A DNA stretch of 64,000 bases, taken from sequence record OK018184. One strand, written 5' to 3'. Shown here piece by piece: positions 21,283 to 64,000 of the stretch; position 1 is the stretch's first letter, and the number at the start of each line of letters is the position of its first letter. Below the pieces are notes generated by a model. That model was not told the origin of the DNA, ran no database searches, and worked only from the letters and a program-made list of their open reading frames with translations. This DNA comes from Shigella phage CT01. Both the position numbers and the translations under genes were made by a program.

Positions 21283-22214
21283 TAGAATGCTCCTTGAAAA
21301 ATATTATCACCACTAGTAGGTCTATTATACAAATACTCTATGCCACCAGGTTTAATATAGTTCCATGTCTGAAACGGATGTGTCTGATATGGATGATATA
21401 GATGATTATTAGGTCTATTATACAAATACTCTATGCCACCAGGTTTAATATAGTTCCATGTCTGAAACGGATGTGTCTGATATGGATGATATAGATGATT
21501 ATAAGGATTTAATCCAGGCGTTCTCCAGGTAGTGTTCCAAGGAAAAGAATCGTTTTTAACCATCTTCTCAATTAAATCTTTTATAGCTTTTTCACTATCA
21601 AAACTTTCTTTATTTTCCTTCGGCGAAAAAAGCTTATTTTCTACATCATTCCATGTATAAACTCGCTGCGCAGTTTTTGGAATATTGTCACGCTCTCCTC
21701 GAGCCATCCAATAAACAGGAACATTTAATATTTCACTCGCATGATCGCAGTGATGAGCGAGATCGTCAATATAACAAATTACGTTATATTTCTCTTTTGC
21801 CTTTTTGAACAGCTCTTCTTTTGAAGAATCATGACCACACATCATTACTTCCGAGAAAGCACCAGGAAAAAGAGCATTCAAATTAAATTGACGATTCAAC
21901 AGAGCGTCAATAGAATCACCCAATGCTGTAACAGCTACAAAATTATAATCTTCTTTTAATTTGTTAATTACACACAGGGCATCTTTATACGGAGACAAGT
22001 AACGAATAAAATCTGAACGATTGTATTTTTCAATTAACTTGACGCCAAGTTCTTCGTCACAATTAAAGAGTTTACCCGGAGAAATAAATTTCTCATCTTG
22101 GATCATTTTTAAAATATGTTCTAATGGAAGATTATATTTCTGAGCAAAATAAGGAAGGCCTGATTGCCAGCTTAAACATACTCCATCAATATCAGTTAAA
22201 ATAGTTGGCTTCAT
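21282..22214 (-). CDS. HAD-like hydrolase-family protein (30.2 position) with in-frame 31-aa C-terminal duplication
   Basis: N-terminal DIDGV (DxDG) HAD motif; C-terminus repeats NHLYHPYQTHPFQTWNYIKPGGIEYLYNRP twice. Confidence 0.6.
   Translation of the reverse strand: MKPTILTDIDGVCLSWQSGLPYFAQKYNLPLEHILKMIQDEKFISPGKLFNCDEELGVKLIEKYNRSDFIRYLSPYKDALCVINKLKEDYNFVAVTALGDSIDALLNRQFNLNALFPGAFSEVMMCGHDSSKEELFKKAKEKYNVICYIDDLAHHCDHASEILNVPVYWMARGERDNIPKTAQRVYTWNDVENKLFSPKENKESFDSEKAIKDLIEKMVKNDSFPWNTTWRTPGLNPYNHLYHPYQTHPFQTWNYIKPGGIEYLYNRPNNHLYHPYQTHPFQTWNYIKPGGIEYLYNRPTSGDNIFQGAF
21317..21502. repeat. perfect 93-bp tandem duplication (2 copies) inside the 30.2 ORF
   Basis: 21317-21409 is identical to 21410-21502. 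Confidence 0.9.
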
Positions 22215-27143: not shown

Positions 27144-27664
27144 GTTGATCCTAGCTCCTTACTTTCAACGTTTTTAACTAATTTGACAGAAACTAATTCA
27201 GCATCTTGGGTAATCATTACCGGGCCTTCTTCATACTCTTCAAGATATTCTAGAGCTTTCTTTTTAGCTTCTTCCTTCGTATCAGTTTGAGCATAGATAT
27301 AAAACATACAACCAGTAATACCTACTACTTTCCACTTAATTTCTTTATCAGTTTTAATTTCAAATTTACTGATAGAGTCATCTTTTTGAACTTCTTCGAA
27401 AAAATAATATTCTGACATATAAGTAATTGAAAATAGCGGGCTATCTTTATAAGATTCGCCCATTACATCAACAGCTTTATACCAGCAATCGTCAATTTCG
27501 CGTTTAATGCTAATAACATTTTTCGCAGGATCTATTTTTACTTTAAATGAATTTTCCCCAATAAACTGAGCAATTCGTTTATTAGCCCCGCAAGTTTCAT
27601 TAAAAATATCTTTATATCCAGCTTTAAAGCGATAAACCTTATCTTCTTCAAACCATTCGCTCAT
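27137..27664 (-). CDS. hypothetical protein
   Basis: 175-aa ORF. Confidence 0.5.
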   Translation of the reverse strand: MSEWFEEDKVYRFKAGYKDIFNETCGANKRIAQFIGENSFKVKIDPAKNVISIKREIDDCWYKAVDVMGESYKDSPLFSITYMSEYYFFEEVQKDDSISKFEIKTDKEIKWKVVGITGCMFYIYAQTDTKEEAKKKALEYLEEYEEGPVMITQDAELVSVKLVKNVESKELGSTC

Positions 27665-32665: not shown

Positions 32666-33817
32666 TTAAAAGTATTTTTTAAAACTCATCATAACTTTAT
32701 CATCAACATCATTATCAATCTGTGCAACAAGGTAAGATGACAGTTCTACTTCTTGTGGCGCGGATTGAACATTATCAGAATTAAGGTATTCACGAATCCA
32801 AGGATATGGATGTTTAACCGGAGCATCGGTAATTGGGCATGGAAGACCGCACTGTTTCATACGAGATACAGTTAAGTAATCAATAAAGCTCCACATGCTA
32901 TTTGTATTTAATCCAGGAACATCGCCATCTTTAAATAAATGAACTGCCCAATCTTTTTCTTGGCGGTTAACTTCCATGAAAATATTAACTGCTTCTTGTT
33001 CACACTCTTGAGCAATTTTAACCCATTCGCCGCCATCAGTACCGGATTGAAGTTGACGAATAATATATTGGGTGCCTTTAAGGTGAAGCTGCTCATCACG
33101 TGCAATGAACTTCATAATCTTGGCATTACCTTCCATGATTTCCATGTTCTTATGGAAGTTAAAGGTACATGCAAAAGATACATAAAAACGAATAGCTTCT
33201 AAGGCATTAATAACGTGCAAACAGAGGTAAAGAGATTTCATTAGTGCTCGTTTAGCTTCGGCTTCTTGTTTAATAGCTCGATTTAAACGAAAAACAGCAT
33301 CAGGAGATTCTTTAGCTAGTTCTGTAAATTCTTTAGCATTTTCCCATTCACGGGTTTTAGTCAGAACATCATCATAATAGCGACCGATAGATTCAGCACG
33401 TTTCATGATAGCTTCATCTAGTACAATCTCATCAAATACCTTCGATGGATCAGTATAAAGATTTCGCATGATATGGGTATATGAACGGCTATGAATAGTT
33501 TCACTAAAAGTCCATGTAGCAACCCATGTATCAAGACTTGGGTCTGAAATTAATGACATAAGTACTGCAGACGGTGCACGACCCTGAATGCTATCTAGAA
33601 GTGATTGATACTTCAGGTTGTTAGTAAAAATATCTTGCTGATACTGAGGAAGCTTGTTAAATTGTGCAGCATCCATCATTAAGTTTACTTCTTCAGGACG
33701 CCAGAAAAATGACAACTGCTTTTCGGTTAAATCTTCAAAAACTTTATGACGTTGAATATCATAACGCGCAATACCAAGACCTGAACCGAAGAACATAGGT
33801 TCTTTTAAAACATTCAA
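32666..33817 (-). CDS. nrdB: ribonucleotide reductase small subunit NrdB, intron-less
   Basis: 383 aa continuous ORF with the di-iron ligand region; no intron or I-TevIII ORF. Confidence 0.9.
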   Translation of the reverse strand: MNVLKEPMFFGSGLGIARYDIQRHKVFEDLTEKQLSFFWRPEEVNLMMDAAQFNKLPQYQQDIFTNNLKYQSLLDSIQGRAPSAVLMSLISDPSLDTWVATWTFSETIHSRSYTHIMRNLYTDPSKVFDEIVLDEAIMKRAESIGRYYDDVLTKTREWENAKEFTELAKESPDAVFRLNRAIKQEAEAKRALMKSLYLCLHVINALEAIRFYVSFACTFNFHKNMEIMEGNAKIMKFIARDEQLHLKGTQYIIRQLQSGTDGGEWVKIAQECEQEAVNIFMEVNRQEKDWAVHLFKDGDVPGLNTNSMWSFIDYLTVSRMKQCGLPCPITDAPVKHPYPWIREYLNSDNVQSAPQEVELSSYLVAQIDNDVDDKVMMSFKKYF

Positions 33818-33947
33818 CTAAATTTTCCTTATCATCAGAACCTCCCATACATCTAGGGATTATATGATGTGTCTCTTTATATTCTGATAAAGATTCCCGA
33901 GCCTGAGCTCGGGAAATTAGGTCATTATAGATTTTTTGATAATTCAT
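33759..33947 (-). pseudogene. mobE: truncated HNH homing-endonuclease remnant (mobE-like)
   Basis: 62-aa ORF with HNH motif ETHHIIPRCMGGSDDKENLV that runs into the nrdB start; lies in the nrdA-nrdB gap where T4 has mobE. Confidence 0.5.
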
Positions 33948-34729: not shown

Positions 34730-34877
34730 ATCTTGATAGTCTAACAGGTTATCAAGTGCACGTACTTGAACTTCTGCTAATTCATTAATTTTATCTTGGT
34801 CTTGCCAATCGAAGTTATCCAACACAAATGCAGATAACGTGCACAATCCAATTTCAGCATCAGGACTATTCACATCA
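34730..34877. repeat. 148-bp direct repeat of nrdA sequence, left copy flanking the insert
   Basis: Identical to 35737-35884; encodes DVNSPDAEIGLCTLSAFVLDNFDWQDQDKINELAEVQVRALDNLLDYQD. Confidence 0.9.
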
Positions 34878-35736
34878 GTTCGACGCGTTGTTCTTGAAGA
34901 CGGATCACATACTTGGACTGCTAAACAAGATTTTAATGGCGCAGTTAACTTTAACTCTACTGTTAACCTTAATAACACTACCACATTTAAAACAGAAGTT
35001 AAATTCCGCTCGTTGAATGCATTCCGTATGTATGGCGGAAAATTTGGTACATTTTTACGTAATGATGGAGAGAGTCTTTATATTCTTTCCACCGACGAAG
35101 ATGATCAAGATGGAAACTTTAATACAAATAGACCTTTCCGTTATGAATTAAGAACTGGTGATGTTACTTTGGGTGGTGTTAGTGGTGCTAACGTTTTAAA
35201 ATTAAAACGTGATTCTCTCACCGCATTTTTTGGCGGTGATATTAACATGAAAGGCACGATGACTTTTGACGCCGGACGTTTAGGGTCACGAGATTATTTT
35301 AAATTTAACCATTGGGGTGATAGCAATAACGCTCGTGATAACATCATCCAGTTAGAAGATAGTCAAGGCGCTCATTTTTCCACTGAACGTACTTTAGCGA
35401 CTGGTGCAATTAAAACTCGTTTCTTTGGCGAAACATTCACTGATGGTACATTATACCTAAATCAGATGAATAATAGCTCTGAACGATTCCATATCAATAA
35501 TTGGGGAAATTCAGAAGTTGGTCGCGCGGCAGTGATGGAAGTCGGTGATTCCAAAGGTTATCACTTCTATACGGAACGCAGGACAGATAACAGTTTGACA
35601 TTTGATGTTGCTGGCACTTTTACCGTGCATGGACCTACCGGGATCACTATCAAAAACTCTGTTGGTGCTCGCCACATCTGGTTTAAAGATGATAGCGATG
35701 CAGAAAAGGCTGACAGTTTAATTACCTTCCGCAGTG
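34878..35736 (+). other. inserted segment derived from long tail fibre gene 37 (835 bp of gene 37 sequence plus 24-bp filler)
   Basis: 34876-35712 matches the gene 37 copy at 52582-53074 and also contains the 344 bp absent from that copy; 35713-35736 has no match in the window. Confidence 0.85.
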
Positions 35737-35884
35737 ATCTTGATAGTCTAACAGGTTATCAAGTGCACGTACTTGAACTTCTGCTAATTCATTAATTTTA
35801 TCTTGGTCTTGCCAATCGAAGTTATCCAACACAAATGCAGATAACGTGCACAATCCAATTTCAGCATCAGGACTATTCACATCA
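35737..35884. repeat. 148-bp direct repeat of nrdA sequence, right copy
   Basis: Identical to 34730-34877. Confidence 0.9.
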
Positions 35885-37208
35885 TTTGTTGGAATAGCAA
35901 TTTCACAACACAAGTTACTCTGGCGAATAGGCGCCTTTTCACGAATAAACGGAGTATAGTTATTCGTATTATCAATGAACTGCACATAAATCCTTGCTGT
36001 TCCTGATCGTTCAGTCATGAGTAATTCAAATAGTTCACGGGCTTTAATACGCTTTTTGCGAATATTAGGGTCTTTTTCTGCTGCTTCGTATAATTCGCAG
36101 AAACGGTCTTGGTCTTTAAAATAAGAATAATAAAGCTCACCACCCATTTCATGCGGACTGAACAAAGTAATGTAATCGTTCTTTCCAAAACGTTCCATCA
36201 TCAAATCATTCAACTGGACGCCATAATCCATATGACGGATACGGTTTTCTTCTACACCTTTGTTATTTTTCAAAACGAGAAGATTTTCAACTTCCAAATG
36301 CCAAATAGGATAATAAGCAGTAGCAGCGCCGCCACGAATTCCGCCCTGTGAACATGATTTAACAGCAGTCTGAAAATGTTTCCAAAAAGGAATAACACCA
36401 GTATGGCGTACTTCACCTGTGCCAATCTTAGAACCTTCGGCACGAATCATACCAACGTTAATACCGATTCCAGCTCGTTTTGAAATATACTCAACAATTG
36501 AAGCAGAAGCCTTATTGATAGACTTCAGCGAATCGCCTGCCTCAATAACAACGCATGAACTAAATTGCCGAGTCGGAGTACGACATCCAGCCATAATAGG
36601 AGTAGGCAGTGAAATCTGTCGAGTAGATACTGCTTCATAAAAACGAATAACATGTTTTAATCTATCAACAGGTTCATCTTGATGTAATGCCATTCCAATA
36701 GTCATAAATGCAAACTGAGGAGTTTCATAAATTTGACCAGTGGTTTTATCTTTAACGAGATATTTTTCTTTTAATTGCATCGCCCCGGAATAAGTAAATT
36801 CCATATCCCGCTCATGCTTAATTTTTGATTCTAAAAATGTAATTTCTTCTGCTGAATATTTTGACAACAATTCAGGGTCGTATTTACCTTCATTTACACA
36901 GTAAGAAATATGGTCAATAAATGAACGTGGTTCATATTGCCCGTAAACATGCTTACGAAGAGCAAACATTAAACACCGTGCAGCTACGTATTGATAATCA
37001 GGCTCTTCAACTGAAATAGAATTCGCAGCAGCCTTAATTACAATGGTTTGAATGTCATCAGTGGTCATTCCATCACGGAGATATGATTTAATATTTTCAT
37101 ATAATTCATAAGGATCTACAGATGTTCCTTCAGCTGCCCAAGATAAAACTTTAATAATTTTTTGCGGGTCAAAGCTTTGAGAAACACCACTACTTTTGAT
37201 AACATTAA

Positions 37209-41472: not shown

Positions 41473-42381
41473 TTAAAGGTCATTCAAAAGGTCATCCAGA
41501 TCCGTGTCATCAGCACTAGATGAACTGCCAGAGCTTGAGCTCATAAAATCATCTTCAGTTTTTGTTTTGAAGTCATCAACATTGAATGCATCCAAATCAT
41601 CAGCAACTTTATCAGCTTTCTTAGCGGCAGTTGCTGCGGCACCGCCCATAGCAGCAGTTCCCATAACTTGACTGAACTTAGTGCTCAGTTCTTCAAACGA
41701 TTTGAATTTATCTTTAGAAGTCATTTCAGAAAGGTCAACCATTTGTTCGAACAGTTCTTTCTGGAAAGATTCATCATCAATGTTTGGAATCGCAGATTGA
41801 TTCAGGAATTTAGATTCATCGTAGTTACTAAAACCAGAAACTTGTTTAACTTTCAGTACAAAGTTAGCACCTTCCCACGGACAAGTTACATCAACCGGAG
41901 TTTCACCCATTTCAACATCAACTGCAATCATTGCATTGATTTTATCCCAGATTTTCTTACCAAAACGGTATTTAAATACTTTACCTTCATTTTCTGGAGC
42001 AGCTGGGTCTTTTACTACAAGAATGTTAGCCCAGTAAGAAGTTTTACGTTTAACAAGACCGTACTCTTTATTGTCAGTGTTATACAAATCATTTTTACTG
42101 ATGTACTGACATACTGGACAAGAATCGTAATCACCGTGGGTAGATGAACAGTTTTCAATATACCATTTACCATTTTTCTTGAAACCGTGATTTACAAGAA
42201 TTGCGAATGGTGCTTGTTCATCATTTTTAGACGGAAGAAAACGAATTACTGCTTGACCGTTACCCGCATTATCGAGTTTCAGTTTCCACTCGCCTTTATC
42301 TTCAGAAGAAAAACTACCTTTATTTCCAGCCAGTTTAGCCATTTGTGCAGCGAGTTCAGCAGTAGATTTACGTTTAAACAT
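41473..42381 (-). CDS. 32: single-stranded DNA-binding protein gp32
   Basis: 302 aa; [17 protein letters not shown]..., acidic C-terminus [12 protein letters not shown]; matches recalled T4 gp32. Confidence 0.9.
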
Positions 42382-42628
42382 TTTTATTTCCTTTTTAATT
42401 TAATTAACAGTTGGTGCTATGACGATGTATGACCTCATAGCTGGTCAGTGAGATAATTATAATCTATTTATAATAAGCAATTAATACTTACAAGATTTCA
42501 CAGTTTCAATGAAAACACTTTTGGCTTTCTGTGAATCAATATTTAAAATTTTTCTATAAGCCTTTAACTTTATAGAATAATTATTCCAGACTAAATTATC
42601 AGTCTGTTCATCATGTTTATCAATTATA
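42091..42628. repeat. 538-bp direct repeat, copy 1 (gene 32 5' end, its leader, and the gene 59 3' end)
   Basis: Identical to 42692-43229 (offset 601 bp). Confidence 0.9.
42481..42628 (-). pseudogene. duplicated 3' fragment of gene 59 (last 48 codons)
   Basis: Encodes [48 protein letters not shown], identical to the gp59 C-terminus. Confidence 0.7.
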
Positions 42629-42691
42629 ATTCGAACTGATCTGTGTTTGTGCATTTGGGCATATGTTTGCGCGCGTAAAGCAGGCTGGTCG
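42629..42691. other. 63-bp unique spacer between the two 538-bp repeat copies
   Basis: No match found elsewhere in the window by eye. Confidence 0.6.
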
Positions 42692-42982
42692 ATTTTTACT
42701 GATGTACTGACATACTGGACAAGAATCGTAATCACCGTGGGTAGATGAACAGTTTTCAATATACCATTTACCATTTTTCTTGAAACCGTGATTTACAAGA
42801 ATTGCGAATGGTGCTTGTTCATCATTTTTAGACGGAAGAAAACGAATTACTGCTTGACCGTTACCCGCATTATCGAGTTTCAGTTTCCACTCGCCTTTAT
42901 CTTCAGAAGAAAAACTACCTTTATTTCCAGCCAGTTTAGCCATTTGTGCAGCGAGTTCAGCAGTAGATTTACGTTTAAACAT
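42692..42982 (-). pseudogene. duplicated 5' fragment of gene 32 (first 97 codons) fused to junction sequence
   Basis: Track ORF 42620..42982 begins with the gp32 N-terminus and then diverges into spacer-encoded residues. Confidence 0.7.
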
Positions 42983-43229
42983 TTTTATTTCCTTTTTAAT
43001 TTAATTAACAGTTGGTGCTATGACGATGTATGACCTCATAGCTGGTCAGTGAGATAATTATAATCTATTTATAATAAGCAATTAATACTTACAAGATTTC
43101 ACAGTTTCAATGAAAACACTTTTGGCTTTCTGTGAATCAATATTTAAAATTTTTCTATAAGCCTTTAACTTTATAGAATAATTATTCCAGACTAAATTAT
43201 CAGTCTGTTCATCATGTTTATCAATTATA
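42692..43229. repeat. 538-bp direct repeat, copy 2
   Basis: Identical to 42091-42628. Confidence 0.9.
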
Positions 43230-50403: not shown

Positions 50404-51096
50404 ATGGCTGATTTAAAAGTAGGTTCAACTGTGGGTGGATCTGTCATTTGGCATCAAGGAAATTTTCCATTGAATTCAGCCGGTGACGATGTACTCTACA
50501 AATCATTTAAAATATATTCAGAATATAATAAACCGCAGGCAGCTGATAACGATTTCGTTTCTAAAGCTAATGGTGGTACTTACACCGGTCCAATTACTAT
50601 TAATTACGGGGTAAATAGTTATCTTCAATTAAGTAATAATGAAACCCCTATCCGAATTCGTTCTGGTGGCGGCACCGGTAATACTCTTGTAATTGGTGGA
50701 TCTTCTGGTGGTATTAGTTTTAGACCTGCAGGTAGTGAAATCACTACTGGACAAATTAGTTTTAGACCTGCAGGTAGTGAAATCACTACTGGACAAATTA
50801 CTATTACGCCAGAAGGTTTGACAACATTCACCAAAGCTGTAAAGGCTCCATCTGTAACTGTTACATCTACTCCTTCCGCAGCATCAGATGCTACTCGTAA
50901 AGATTATGTTGATGGAGCAATAAATACTGTTACAGCAAATGCAAACTCTAGAGTGTTACGATCTGGTGACACCATGACAGGAAATTTAACTGCGCCAAAC
51001 CTTTTTTCACAGAATCCTGCATCTCAACCTTCACACGTTCCACGATTTGACCAAATCGTAATTAAGGATTCTGTTCAAGATTTCGGCTATTATTAA
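50404..51096 (+). CDS. 36: long tail fibre distal connector gp36 (with internal 14-aa tandem duplication)
   Basis: 230 aa; N- and C-terminal regions match recalled T4 gp36; [14 protein letters not shown] occurs twice. Confidence 0.8.
50713..50796. repeat. perfect 42-bp tandem duplication (2 copies) inside gene 36
   Basis: attagttttagacctgcaggtagtgaaatcactactggacaa repeated back to back. Confidence 0.9.
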
Positions 51097-51104
51097 GAGG
51101 ACTT

Positions 51105-53835
51105 ATGGCTACTTTAAAACAAATACAATTTAAAAGAAGCAAAACCGCAGGTCAACTTCCTGCTGCTTCAGTATTAGCCGAAGGTGAATTGGCTATTAAT
51201 TTAAAAGATAAAACAATTTTCACAAAAGATGACTCAGGCAATGTTATAGAATTAGGTTTAAAATATGGAGGAACAATTGATGGTTCTTTAACTGTTAATG
51301 GAAATATAATTGGAAATTTAACAGGTAACGCTGCAACTGCAACGAAATTAAAAACAGCACGAAAAATTAATGGTATATCCTTTGATGGGTCAAAAGATAT
51401 CACGCTAACTCCATCCGACATAAATGTCAATAGCACAACGTTTATAAAAAATAACGGCGAATTACCTGTTGATGCTAATTTAGATACGTATGGGCCTGTT
51501 GAAGAATATCTTGGAGTTTGGTCGAAAGCAACTTCAACCAACGCTCAACCAGCAAATAAATTTCCAGAAAACAATGCTGTAGGTGTGCTAGAAGTATTTG
51601 TGGCCGGTCAATTTGCTGGTACTCAGAGATATACAACTAGATACGGAAATGTTTATATTCGTTCCTTGACTGCTACATGGAACGGAGTAAATGGTCCGTG
51701 GAGTGTGTGGCGAAATATTCAATCCGGTACTCGTTCACTGTCAACAACAATTGATCTTAATGATCTAGGAGGTGCTGAACATCTTGGTTTGTGGCGAAAT
51801 AGTTCAAATTCCATTGCTACCTTTGACAGAAATTTCCCAGAAGAGGGGTCGTCAGCTCAAGGTCTTTTGGAAGTATATGAAGGTGGAAACTATTCTCGTA
51901 CACAAAGATATACAACCAGATTTGGTGTTGTTTATACTCGCTGTCTTACTGCTGCGTGGGATGCTTCTGCGCCTAAATGGGGACCGTGGCAACAAGTCGG
52001 TAATGTCACACCGGCGACTTTCTATGACGGAAACCTGAATGATTTTAAAACTCCTGGGTTATATAATATTTTAGGCACTGATGCCGTTATTAATTGTCCT
52101 ACAGGCGAAGGTTTACCAGCCGTTATTGTTGGTTTGCTGGAAGTTAAACAGCGTGCTTCTGGCGGTGCTATTTTCCAAAAATTTACTACTGCCGGAACAG
52201 GTGCAACTACCCGCGATCGTATTTTTGAGCGCGCATATACCGGCGGTGTGTGGGGTGAATGGAACGAAGTATACACATCTTATTCTCTACCAATTACTTT
52301 GGGTATGGGCGGTATTAAATCTAACTTAGCAGAGTTAGACTGGCAAGCATTTGATTTTGTTCCTGGTAGTATGTTTAGCGTTCCTTTGAACAAAATAAAG
52401 AACATGCCAGCTAATATGGATTGGGGTACGATTGACGGAAACTTAATTATGTTTTCTGTTGGTCCTAGCGAGCACACCAGCACAGGACGTACTGTTCAGG
52501 TTTGGCGTGGAACTGTATCCCAGACAAACTATCGTTATTTTGTCGTTCGTGTATTCGGTAATCCAGGGAGTAGAACATGTACAGTTCGACGCGTTGTTCT
52601 TGAAGACGGATCACATACTTGGACTGCTAAACAAGATTTTAATGGCGCAGTTAACTTTAACTCTACTGTTAACCTTAATAACACTACCACATTTAAAACA
52701 GAAGTTAAATTCCGCTCGTTGAATGCAAGGCGCTCATTTTTCCACTGAACGTACTTTAGCGACTGGTGCAATTAAAACTCGTTTCTTTGGCGAAACATTC
52801 ACTGATGGTACATTATACCTAAATCAGATGAATAATAGCTCTGAACGATTCCATATCAATAATTGGGGAAATTCAGAAGTTGGTCGCGCGGCAGTGATGG
52901 AAGTCGGTGATTCCAAAGGTTATCACTTCTATACGGAACGCAGGACAGATAACAGTTTGACATTTGATGTTGCTGGCACTTTTACCGTGCATGGACCTAC
53001 CGGGATCACTATCAAAAACTCTGTTGGTGCTCGCCACATCTGGTTTAAAGATGATAGCGATGCAGAAAAGGCTGTTATCTGGGCTACAGATGAGGGTATT
53101 TTACATATTCGCAATAATCATGAGGGTTCATTTAGTCATCACTTCCAGGGTGCAATGATTAAACTGGAAGGGCGTGTTCCTTATGGTGCAGCAAAAGGGC
53201 TTATTCGAGGCGAGATAGACGGTGGTGCATATGTTGCATGGAGAGACCGCCCTGCTGGTTTGTTGGTTGACTGCCAGAAAAGTATTGACAGTGCTCATGC
53301 TGTTTGGAAAGCGGTTGATTGGGGGCGTCAATATATCGCTGCTATGGACGTTCATTGTCCGGGTGATGGTAATAATACTGCGGCAGCGGTTCTTCATGTT
53401 CAGGCTGCTGATTATCAATTCCATGCAAGCGGAGAATTTCATGCCACTGGTAACGGGAACTTTAACGATGTGTATATTCGTTCCGATGGTCGTCTGAAAA
53501 TTAATGTTGAAGATTATACAGGAAATGCGTTAAGTTTGATCGGCAAACTGAAAGTGAAAACTTACGATAAAGTTAAATCTCTTAAAGACCGTGAAATTAT
53601 CGGTCACGAGATCGGCATTATCGCACAGGATTTACAAGAAATATTACCGGAAGCTGTAAAATCTTCAAAGGTTGGCAATCTTGATAATCCAGACGATGTT
53701 CTGACAATTTCTAACTCTGCTGTGAATGCTCTTTTAATTAAGGCTATTCAGGAAATGAGTAAAGAAATTAAAGAATTGAAAACTCCTTTCTTTACTAAAA
53801 TTGCTCGCAAAATTAGTAAATATTTTAAATTCTAA
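51105..53835 (+). pseudogene. 37: long tail fibre distal subunit gene 37, broken by a 344-bp frameshifting deletion at 52727/52728
   Basis: Two overlapping ORFs in different frames (51105..52748 and 52723..53835); the missing 344 bp is present in the copy inside nrdA at 35022-35365. Confidence 0.8.
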
Positions 53836-61475: not shown

Positions 61476-61751
61476 TCATAGTTCAATCTCAGCGATTTTC
61501 ATTTCATTACTATTAATAGCCGCTTTAAGACTATCTGAAAGAATTACATCCCAGTGGTCATTCATATGACCATTAACTAAACGTGTAATTTCTTCGGGAG
61601 TTGAAAAATAAGGCGTATCAGACTCCCAATGCGATAGTCCCAAGCGAGTATAAATCATACCTTCATCATCGCTAGAATATTCAACTGACACAAACTCATC
61701 AGTTATTTTATGTTTAGCGTAATAAAATTTAAATTTCATTTTATTCTCCAA
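61476..61751 (-). CDS. hypothetical protein
   Basis: 91-aa ORF with a promoter block upstream. Confidence 0.5.
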   Translation of the reverse strand: MENKMKFKFYYAKHKITDEFVSVEYSSDDEGMIYTRLGLSHWESDTPYFSTPEEITRLVNGHMNDHWDVILSDSLKAAINSNEMKIAEIEL

Positions 61752-61820: not shown

Positions 61821-62378
61821 TTAAATGGAAAGATACCATCCGTTGTAGTTGCTTTTTCTTACAACCTTACGAAGGTCTTCTCTATCACCGACGAACTTCG
61901 GAGTGTACTGGATGACACCTGGATGAATTTCTTTAGTGTTGAATATAATTATACAGTCAGCGACTTGATGATTCAGAATGGGCCCTAGATTTATTCCAGA
62001 ACCGTATGGATACTCTCCGCTGCATCCGGTTGTTACAGAAATCCAACGTGAGTCAGTTTGGTGTGTCTTAACTTCTACGCGAATCCCGCAGTATCTTGGA
62101 TGCGCCAATACATCCCATGCGTATGTATACGGGTCATTAACATCCTCTTGGCCTTTGTTAACATACCCGCTTAGCCAATCTGCTACAAAAAACTCTGCGT
62201 ACACCGCGATACGGCATCTTTCGATAACTTCTGCTTTATCCTGATTTGGATTTTGTTTTAAAGAGTATCTTGCTGTATCAGCAATTTTGACCTTCATTTC
62301 ACTAGTCAAGTCACTGTTCGATAGGGTAAATGTCGGAATCTGAAATAGTCTCTGTAAACCCGGATTCGTTTTCTGCAT
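61821..62378 (-). CDS. denB: endonuclease IV (DenB)-like protein
   Basis: 185 aa, T4 denB length and position between ndd and rIIB; identity by synteny and length only. Confidence 0.6.
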   Translation of the reverse strand: MQKTNPGLQRLFQIPTFTLSNSDLTSEMKVKIADTARYSLKQNPNQDKAEVIERCRIAVYAEFFVADWLSGYVNKGQEDVNDPYTYAWDVLAHPRYCGIRVEVKTHQTDSRWISVTTGCSGEYPYGSGINLGPILNHQVADCIIIFNTKEIHPGVIQYTPKFVGDREDLRKVVRKSNYNGWYLSI

Positions 62379-62719
62379 TAAACTTTCCTTTTACGTCGGA
62401 ATCACTGATATTCATACAATAAATCATAACTTCCCTTAAAACAAAAGGGCCGAAGCCCCTTATTTTATTTGAATTGTGCAATTCTTTTCTCTATCTTGCT
62501 GTATCAGCAATTTTGACCTTCATTTCACTAGTCAAGTCACTGTTCGATAGGGTAAATGTCGGAATCTGAAATAGTCTCTGTAAACCCGGATTCGTTTTCT
62601 GCATTAAACTTTCCTTTTACGTCGGAATCACTGATATTCATACAATAAATCATAACTTCCCTTAAAACAAAAGGGCCGAAGCCCCTTATTTTATTTGAAT
62701 TGTGCAATTCTTTTCTCTA
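62266..62719. repeat. perfect 226-bp tandem duplication (2 copies) spanning the denB 5' end, its upstream region with terminator, and the 3' end of the 64-aa gene
   Basis: 62266-62491 is identical to 62492-62717; boundaries ambiguous by 2 bp. Confidence 0.9.
62446..62468 (-). terminator. hairpin gggc-cgaa-gccc plus T-run; further copies at 62672-62694 and 62903-62925
   Basis: aaaagggccgaagccccttattttatttgaattg occurs three times. Confidence 0.5.
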
Positions 62720-62885
62720 AACAATCTGCGTAAGATTTCATTGAGATAAACTGCGAAAGTAGTAATTCTTGCTCGACTTCATTAATCGTTAGAAACTTTG
62801 TGCTTTCTAAAAATTTGCTCAGTGCATTAATTTTGAGCATTAATTGATCGTATTCTTCTTTTACTCGTGCTTGATAACCTAACAT
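62691..62885 (-). CDS. hypothetical protein
   Basis: 64-aa ORF ending in QFK followed by the shared terminator. Confidence 0.5.
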   Translation of the reverse strand: MLGYQARVKEEYDQLMLKINALSKFLESTKFLTINEVEQELLLSQFISMKSYADCLEKRIAQFK

Positions 62886-62919
62886 AATTTTCCTTAGTTA
62901 AGGGCCGAAGCCCCTTATT

Positions 62920-63858
62920 TTATTTGAATTGTTCAGTAACGTCTTCAACTACTTCGTATTGACAGGTACGCATTTTAGCATCGTTGTAATCAATCGGAAT
63001 TGATACTACATCGCGAGGATGTACTTTAACTTTTACAACTCGGCTAGTTGAACTGCCAAAGTGACGAATATAAGATTTAGAACACACATGCAGACCACGA
63101 GAACAAGTTTGTGTATCATCGTCATTCACACGAGTACGTGGCATTTTAACTACTTTGCCAGGACTGTTATCAAAAGTATTTGAATGACAGTCAAAGTAAT
63201 TACTGCGAACTACTTTCCAAGCATAGAAGTAACCGTCTTCTGTAATTTCAATATCGTTTGCTACCAAGAAATCAAAGAGTCGAGATACCGCTTTTTGGCT
63301 CGGGTTTTCCAACAGATTTTCCAAGAACGGAAAATAAAATTCAAAGTTTTCGCCTTTTTCCATCGAATCGAGAATACGATCAACTAAACCAGACCGCAAT
63401 TCAATATTTTGATAGAACAAGCTTCCACCTTCAATTCGAACATCACCGGAAATATATTTTTCAACAGCGCGACGAACGTTAATTTTTTGCGCTGCTTCTT
63501 CCAATTTATCTGCAACAAGCAGATTAAGAATTTCCTGGAAGTTTGAATGAGTATTAGGAGTTGCGTTATAAGTTACACCGTCAACAGTAATTGAAATGAA
63601 TTTTTTAGATGCATTCCAAATAATGTCAGATTTAGCAACTGGAGCAATAGCTACATCACTCTTAACTTCAACTGTAATGTCACCGCTAATGGTAACTTTG
63701 GAGCGCTCAGCTTCTTCAGCATTTTTCAAAACACGACGGATTGTGTCCACCGATACACCTTGCCAATCAGCCAATTCCTGTTGGGTATAATTACCGCTTG
63801 AATACAATTTAACAATTTCAGCTTGTTCGTTTTTGGTCAGGCATTTAATATTGTACAT
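62920..63858 (-). CDS. rIIB: rIIB
   Basis: 312 aa, MYNIKCLTKNEQAEIVKLYSSGNYTQQELADWQGVSVDTIRRVLK matches recalled T4 rIIB. Confidence 0.9.
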   Translation of the reverse strand: MYNIKCLTKNEQAEIVKLYSSGNYTQQELADWQGVSVDTIRRVLKNAEEAERSKVTISGDITVEVKSDVAIAPVAKSDIIWNASKKFISITVDGVTYNATPNTHSNFQEILNLLVADKLEEAAQKINVRRAVEKYISGDVRIEGGSLFYQNIELRSGLVDRILDSMEKGENFEFYFPFLENLLENPSQKAVSRLFDFLVANDIEITEDGYFYAWKVVRSNYFDCHSNTFDNSPGKVVKMPRTRVNDDDTQTCSRGLHVCSKSYIRHFGSSTSRVVKVKVHPRDVVSIPIDYNDAKMRTCQYEVVEDVTEQFK

Positions 63859-64000
63859 AATTTTCCTTATTAGGCCGCAAGGGCCTTCATAGTTTTAGCG
63901 ATTTGGGAAACTTCATCATCACTTAAAGAATTGGGGTTGTATGTTTTATATCTATGCTCAAACTGATACGAAGGAAGAAGCTAAAAAGAAAGCTCTAGAA

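Follow-up and report, generated by a model that had tools for sequence, protein, structure and literature searches.

Within the 64,000-nucleotide stretch of Shigella phage CT01 analysed here (record OK018184; hereafter the window), a 226-bp sequence stands twice in direct succession where denB meets denB.1, raising the question of whether the phage itself duplicated this segment or whether the second copy entered when the sequence was put together. Self-comparison of the window bears out the perfect tandem duplication described in an earlier sequence-only reading: positions 62266–62491 and 62492–62717 are identical over 226 bp and lie head-to-tail, and the period-226 match extends over 228 nt, to 62719, giving a joint overlap of 2 bp ('TA'). 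A perfect repeat of this length is beyond chance. Judged from the sequence comparisons presented below, it is probably an unmerged overlap between adjacent assembly pieces rather than a biological duplication. The two copies and their joint are as follows.

62266–62491, no strand assigned: repeat copy A, 226 bp, adjoining intact denB and identical to 62492–62717
62492–62717, no strand assigned: repeat copy B, 226 bp, adjoining denB.1, with the match running on for 2 nt (TA) to 62719
62491–62493, minus strand: novel joint, at which a joint-made TAG stop ends the orphan ORF; junction ...CTTTTCTC / TATCTTGC...

Written across the joint between the 226-bp copies (slash), the sequence reads ...GCAATTCTTTTCTC / TATCTTGCTGTATC..., and likewise ...AATTCTTTTCTC / TATCTTGCTGTATCAGC.... 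The locus is the rIIB–denB.1–denB stretch of a Tequatrovirus, with its genes on the minus strand and in the same order as in T4 and many Tequatrovirus records.

61821–62378, minus strand: intact denB (endonuclease IV), 185 aa; PHROG 1360 (E = 4e-97), denB in T4 and relatives
62311–62427, minus strand: 38-aa mini-ORF, in-frame remnant of a DUF7418 gene, overlapping the denB start; second copy at 62537–62653
62491–62604, minus strand: orphan denB' ORF from the ORF list, codons 1–37 plus stop, with its own Shine-Dalgarno
62691–62885, minus strand: denB.1, 64 aa; Pfam PF21825 (crAss001_48-related), last 8 codons and stop inside the unit
62920–63858, minus strand: rIIB, 312 aa; PHROG 609 (E = 5e-111), annotated rIIB in relatives

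Read in the direction of transcription, the unit comprises the last 8 codons and stop of denB.1, a hairpin with U-tract, the 38-aa mini-ORF, the denB Shine-Dalgarno and denB codons 1–37, so that every element previously assigned to it (the first 37 denB codons, a ribosome-binding site, a hairpin terminator and the 3' end of an upstream 64-aa gene) could be located. The orphan 5' gene fragment proposed to lie beside the intact gene is likewise present as a 37-codon ORF, with AGGAA upstream of the ATG in both denB and denB', and is closed by the TAG that the joint makes immediately 3' of denB codon 37. No record of the exact 37-aa orphan product was found in public assemblies. A product identical to the window DenB, on which PF26887 is listed, is encoded on one Logan contig of the SF2-1 type in which the locus is single-copy.

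The mini-ORF retains the N-terminal 13 and C-terminal 26 residues of a 109-aa DUF7418 (PHROG 2237) gene, which lies complete between denB.1 and denB in ime09-type phages, while T4 and SF2-1 both carry the 207-bp-deleted form of this region. In ime09 and many relatives the locus is about 1183 bp long, owing to the 207-bp extra segment that completes the DUF7418 gene; the greater length of these relatives is thus no duplication. A separate indel of 202 bp lies nearby at 61737–61746, flanked by 10-bp direct repeats, where the window lacks a 68-aa ORF kept in SF2-1, BYEP01 and ime09; the deleted form is common to 40 other phage records.

The repeat end points fall between denB codons 37 and 38 and between denB.1 codons 56 and 57. 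The unit resembles the microhomology or minihomology duplications of T4 in being a head-to-tail direct repeat (226 bp × 2, 100% identical). Deletions and amplifications in T4 show junction homologies of 3–13 nt (PMC8262927), typically 6–10 bp (PMC9391042). No such identity of 3–13 nt at both parental end points was found at the 226-bp joint, where the shared sequence is the 2-nt 'TA'; at least 2 bp are shared by 17% of random junctions at 226-bp spacing in this window, and the homology is therefore at chance level. The left end point lies 4 nt from a 6-bp hairpin (TTGCTGATACAGCAA), a closeness found for 4% of window positions, which speaks to some extent for a genuine event. A structure-driven mechanism starting from this hairpin was rejected, as a p of about 0.04 is too weak.

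Comparison with other phages places the repeat in this sequence alone. In the closest relative, Shigella phage SF2-1 (PQ571308), the flanks match at 100% identity for 757 bp left of the joint and for 1442 bp right of it, and the unit is present once, as it is in T4. A search with the 226-bp unit returned 493 places in 491 phage records, 489 of them single-copy, with a second copy only in Sf24 (two records), and single copies were also seen at all 12 of the additional loci, drawn from IMG/VR, metagenomes and one Logan assembly. A 34-nt junction-only query had no match in 50,697 phage records (INPHARED), and a 30-nt junction pattern had none in IMG/VR, metagenome contigs or genome contigs. The 226-bp repeat is thus private to this phage sequence, and perfect copies that are absent from near-identical relatives (SF2-1 with its single copy between 100% identical flanks; 489/491 records) are one mark by which an assembly artefact can be recognised.

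Sf24 (MF327008, 92090–92619; locus L002, 2198–2727) carries an independent perfect tandem repeat of 265 bp with 0-bp junction homology, which lies across the denB.1 terminator, is annotated as paralogous gp121/gp122 and is the only tandem repeat in that genome. Its position across the same terminator could mark a biological hot spot. The Sf24 record begins exactly at a gene end, which indicates that it was rotated after assembly and that the original contig ends could be internal, and the repeat fits an untrimmed circularisation overlap.

Each copy of the unit also contains a terminator, and a related module follows rIIB.

62444–62461, minus strand: CUUCGG-loop hairpin AAGGGGCUUCGGCCCUUU followed by UGUUUU, terminator-like, between the orphan ORF and intact denB
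62670–62687, minus strand: the same CUUCGG hairpin AAGGGGCUUCGGCCCUUU and UGUUUU, directly 3' of denB.1
62900–62935, minus strand: third module copy, 33/36 nt (QFK-stop, AAATAAAATA, hairpin), after rIIB; sense strand without a U-tract

An intrinsic terminator is expected to have a GC-rich hairpin and, on the transcribed strand, a U-tract after it; both features were found at 62444–62461 and at 62670–62687, confirming that the repeat creates a second terminator copy. A third terminator motif had been placed near 62903–62925; a module copy does occur there, at 62900–62935, but the hairpin distal to rIIB is followed on the sense strand by AACUAAGGAAAAUUAUG with no U-tract, and the terminator scan scored it as terminator-like on the antisense strand only. 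The module copies (62445–62480, 62671–62706 and 62900–62935; 33 nt exact, 36 nt at 97%) are confined, within the window, to these three sites. A QFK-stop ending is common to RIIB and DenB.1 and is followed in each case by AAATAAAATA and the CUUCGG hairpin, and the 33-nt module brackets denB.1, as if a small gene had entered together with a duplicate of the 3' end of rIIB. A promoter scan of the unit gave no sigma-70-like candidate on its sense strand, and denB is therefore probably dependent on read-through; a MotA box was looked for by eye in the unit and nothing convincing was seen, and apart from the terminator hairpins RNA folding of the whole unit gave nothing (z = -0.46). The identical DenB is encoded on a Logan contig (L018, k = 31) that begins inside the 33-nt module, which is thus a real graph-breaking repeat, and the breaking of k = 31 graphs by this module would explain why assembly ends cluster at the denB.1 locus.

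The reading of the repeat is altered by the remainder of the window, which was aligned in full to SF2-1 (background identity 96–100%) and screened for self-repeats of at least 35 bp at ≥97% identity. Eight such repeats were found in the 64-kb window, all perfect over their true extent, as against none in the homologous 68 kb of SF2-1 and two in the whole Sf24 genome. Besides the 226-bp unit the window contains seven more perfect private repeats, two filler runs and a broken gene 37. Among the private repeats are two tandems, of 93 and 42 bp, two pairs, of 148 and 538 bp (the latter with 60 bp of filler), a displaced piece of 837 bp and an inverted end of 66 bp. The 50,697 phage records contain no joint of any of these private anomalies.

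The 93-bp perfect tandem repeat (21317–21502) has 0-bp junction homology and lies in frame in a gene-30.2-like ORF; its unit matched 499 records at 500 places, and the best-matching relatives listed are single-copy. The perfect 42-bp tandem repeat in gene 36 (50713–50800) has a 4-bp junction overlap and adds 14 residues to gp36, while SF2-1 has one copy and the joint occurs in no phage record. The 538-bp perfect repeat (42091–42628 and 42692–43229), also present once in SF2-1, comprises the 3' end of gene 59, codons 1–97 of gene 32 and the intergenic region, and its copies are set apart by a 60-bp filler of 52% GC (42632–42691). This filler matches E. coli mdtD exactly over 26 nt (36/40), with flanks that are not homologous, and a 33-mer taken from it was absent from 185,579 species genomes.

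Two genes, nrdA and gene 37, are split. At 34730–35887 an 837-bp piece of gene 37 (34876–35712) together with a 24-nt filler lies inside nrdA, between 148-bp perfect direct repeats, and splits NrdA into residues 1–495 and 425–754 with a 50-residue overlap (tblastn). Gene 37 itself lacks 344 bp relative to SF2-1 at 52727 and is frame-shifted, with residues 1–545 in frame 3 and 656–1024 in frame 1 (tblastn); the displaced piece corresponds to gene 37 residues 492–771, covers the missing part and overlaps the gap edges by 146 and 349 bp. The tail-fibre gene 37 is essential. Homology to rIIA ends at 63933, and from 63934 to the window end (64000) the final 66 nt repeat 27248–27313 exactly in inverted orientation, so that the window end (63934–64000) is read as a putative fold-back or wrong-orientation join. 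Beside the nrdA insertion, the window is also without the 621-bp homing-endonuclease gene that SF2-1 has between nrdA and nrdB (33812–33819), at a junction with an 8-bp overlap whose exact joint was not found in other records. With gene 37 broken and seven other private perfect repeats present, the window sequence as given is no viable genome.

The 226-bp repeat is therefore private, perfect, without meaningful junction homology and situated amid other join-type defects, and we infer from the sequence that its cause was assembly or concatenation. Two consecutive assembly pieces sharing a 226-bp overlap would have been set end to end unmerged, one piece ending 11 nt beyond the denB.1 terminator module and the other beginning in denB codon 37. 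The real phage would then have the single-copy order rIIB–denB.1–terminator–denB, as in SF2-1 and T4, and the 837-bp piece would be a misplaced bridging contig for the gene 37 gap. Once the overlaps are merged, nrdA and gene 36 are whole again and the denB locus is single-copy, and the misplaced piece holds what gene 37 lacks; overlapping contigs placed in series without being merged would behave in this way. Other joins with the same defect, of a kind that merging repairs, are a second mark of artefact, and here they comprise the seven further repeats, the splits in nrdA and gene 37 and the misplaced 837-bp piece. The artefact is favoured further by the 100% identical flanks of SF2-1 around one copy, the single copies in relatives and the absence of the junction elsewhere, by a 2-bp joint at chance level as against the 10-bp overlap at the natural 202-bp indel 500 bp away, and by the 33-nt module in the unit, which does break k = 31 assembly. 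Counting against the artefact are the high base-level quality of the sequence, the intact ORFs around the repeat, the perfect 265-bp tandem repeat of Sf24 across the same terminator and the irregular overlap sizes (42–538 bp), unlike the fixed k-mer overlap of common de Bruijn assemblers. To these is added the 60-bp filler, which, apart from its mdtD match, is unrelated to anything found.

The alternative that survives best, which we regard as unlikely and yet deserving of consideration, is a genuine and very recent tandem duplication, with denB codon 37 and denB.1 codon 56 brought together by illegitimate recombination or by template switching during replication. Such an event would probably be neutral or nearly so; both genes remain intact, denB gains a decoy ORF of 37 codons and a further terminator upstream, and homologous recombination between the 226-bp copies would soon remove the duplication. 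Whenever the ends of a tandem duplication fall in two neighbouring genes, one intact copy of each is left, as observed here; the region is non-essential and variable among relatives, a second perfect duplication occurs at the same site in Sf24, tandem amplifications form readily in T4 (PMC9391042) and duplications of the rII region are classical (discussed in PMC8262927). Set against this, the 2-bp homology is both at chance level and below the 3–13 nt reported for T4, the repeat is unique among about 500 relatives, and, as we estimate from the recombination rates of T4, a neutral 226-bp direct repeat should be unstable. The broken essential gene 37 and the seven other perfect private repeats in the same window weigh against it as well, and it is this series of join-type anomalies that makes an unmerged overlap likelier than the biological duplication assumed in the sequence-only reading.

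We give very little credence to a selected change at a duplication hot spot, in which an extra terminator and a decoy ORF would lower read-through expression of denB and ndd and the duplications here and in Sf24 would have arisen independently. Two perfect duplications of different lengths (226 and 265 bp) and with different ends both take in the denB.1 terminator, and denB probably depends on read-through, the sense strand of the unit lacking a sigma-70-like promoter. The two are, however, the only cases in about 500 genomes, both are perfect with 0–2 bp of junction homology, the rotated Sf24 record contains such a repeat exactly once, which is what a circularisation overlap left untrimmed would give, and the other anomalies of the window point to artefact. 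It is similarly improbable that the denB.1 terminator region would be a hot spot for homology-independent tandem duplication in Tequatroviruses generally (here and in Sf24) or, more radically, that a mutator state would be making many short perfect duplications; in either case the extra terminator and decoy ORF would modulate how strongly Ndd and the dC-specific nuclease DenB are expressed.

Recombination between repeated terminator modules, the seeding suggested in the sequence-only reading, which would resemble PeSL-type cassette shuffling, is scarcely credible: although an exact 33-nt module absent elsewhere in the window flanks denB.1 (after rIIB and after denB.1) and stem-loop/promoter cassettes of the PeSL type drive shuffling in other T4-type phages (PMC2839356, PMC4122927), the model is contradicted by the junction coordinates, as the repeat ends 179 nt and 11 nt away from the module, with neither end point inside it, and module-to-module exchange would yield a 229-bp unit holding all of denB.1, unlike the 226-bp unit seen. 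The unit has a hairpin and no sigma-70-like sense-strand promoter was found in it, so that the stem-loop plus early promoter of a PeSL is lacking, and its ends (62266, 62491/62717) do not fall within the motif (modules at 62445–62480, 62671–62706 and 62900–62935). A de Bruijn loop artefact through the 33-nt module was rejected on a similar basis, as it would give a 229-bp unit with ends in the module.

If the repeat is an artefact, the 64-kb sequence is unfit for use as a colinear genome, and false annotations would propagate from it, among them the orphan denB', split versions of gene 37 and nrdA and several further 'duplications'. If it is real, it would add one case to the plasticity already known for the non-essential rIIB-52 region in T4-type phages and would offer a modest handle on the dependence of denB and ndd on terminator read-through, and it would still be no new kind of element.

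Among known systems, PeSL cassettes (PMC2839356, PMC4122927) are similar in having a small accessory gene, here denB.1, bordered by a short intergenic stem-loop module that is repeated, and dissimilar in that the module here has no early promoter and the repeat ends outside it. The T4 dmd-tifA 'accordion' amplification (PMC9391042) and minihomology recombination (PMC8262927) resemble the present repeat in that direct copies stand head-to-tail in an early region of a T4-type genome that is non-essential. Those events have 3–13 nt of homology, and under selection a complete gene is amplified together with its promoter (PMC9391042, PMC8262927), whereas the joint here has 2 bp and the unit contains no promoter and no full-length gene except the 38-aa remnant ORF. 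The Sf24 repeat is closer, being perfect and private, spanning the same denB.1 terminator and creating a truncated second ORF; it differs in its end points, its 0-bp homology, its ime09-type locus with a full DUF7418 gene and its standing as the genome's only tandem repeat. With unmerged contig overlaps and untrimmed circularisation overlaps the difference is one of size, which here is irregular (42–538 bp) and not one k-mer length, and the likeness extends to perfect identity, a joint devoid of homology, absence from the nearest relatives, other join defects alongside and a site at a short graph-breaking repeat.
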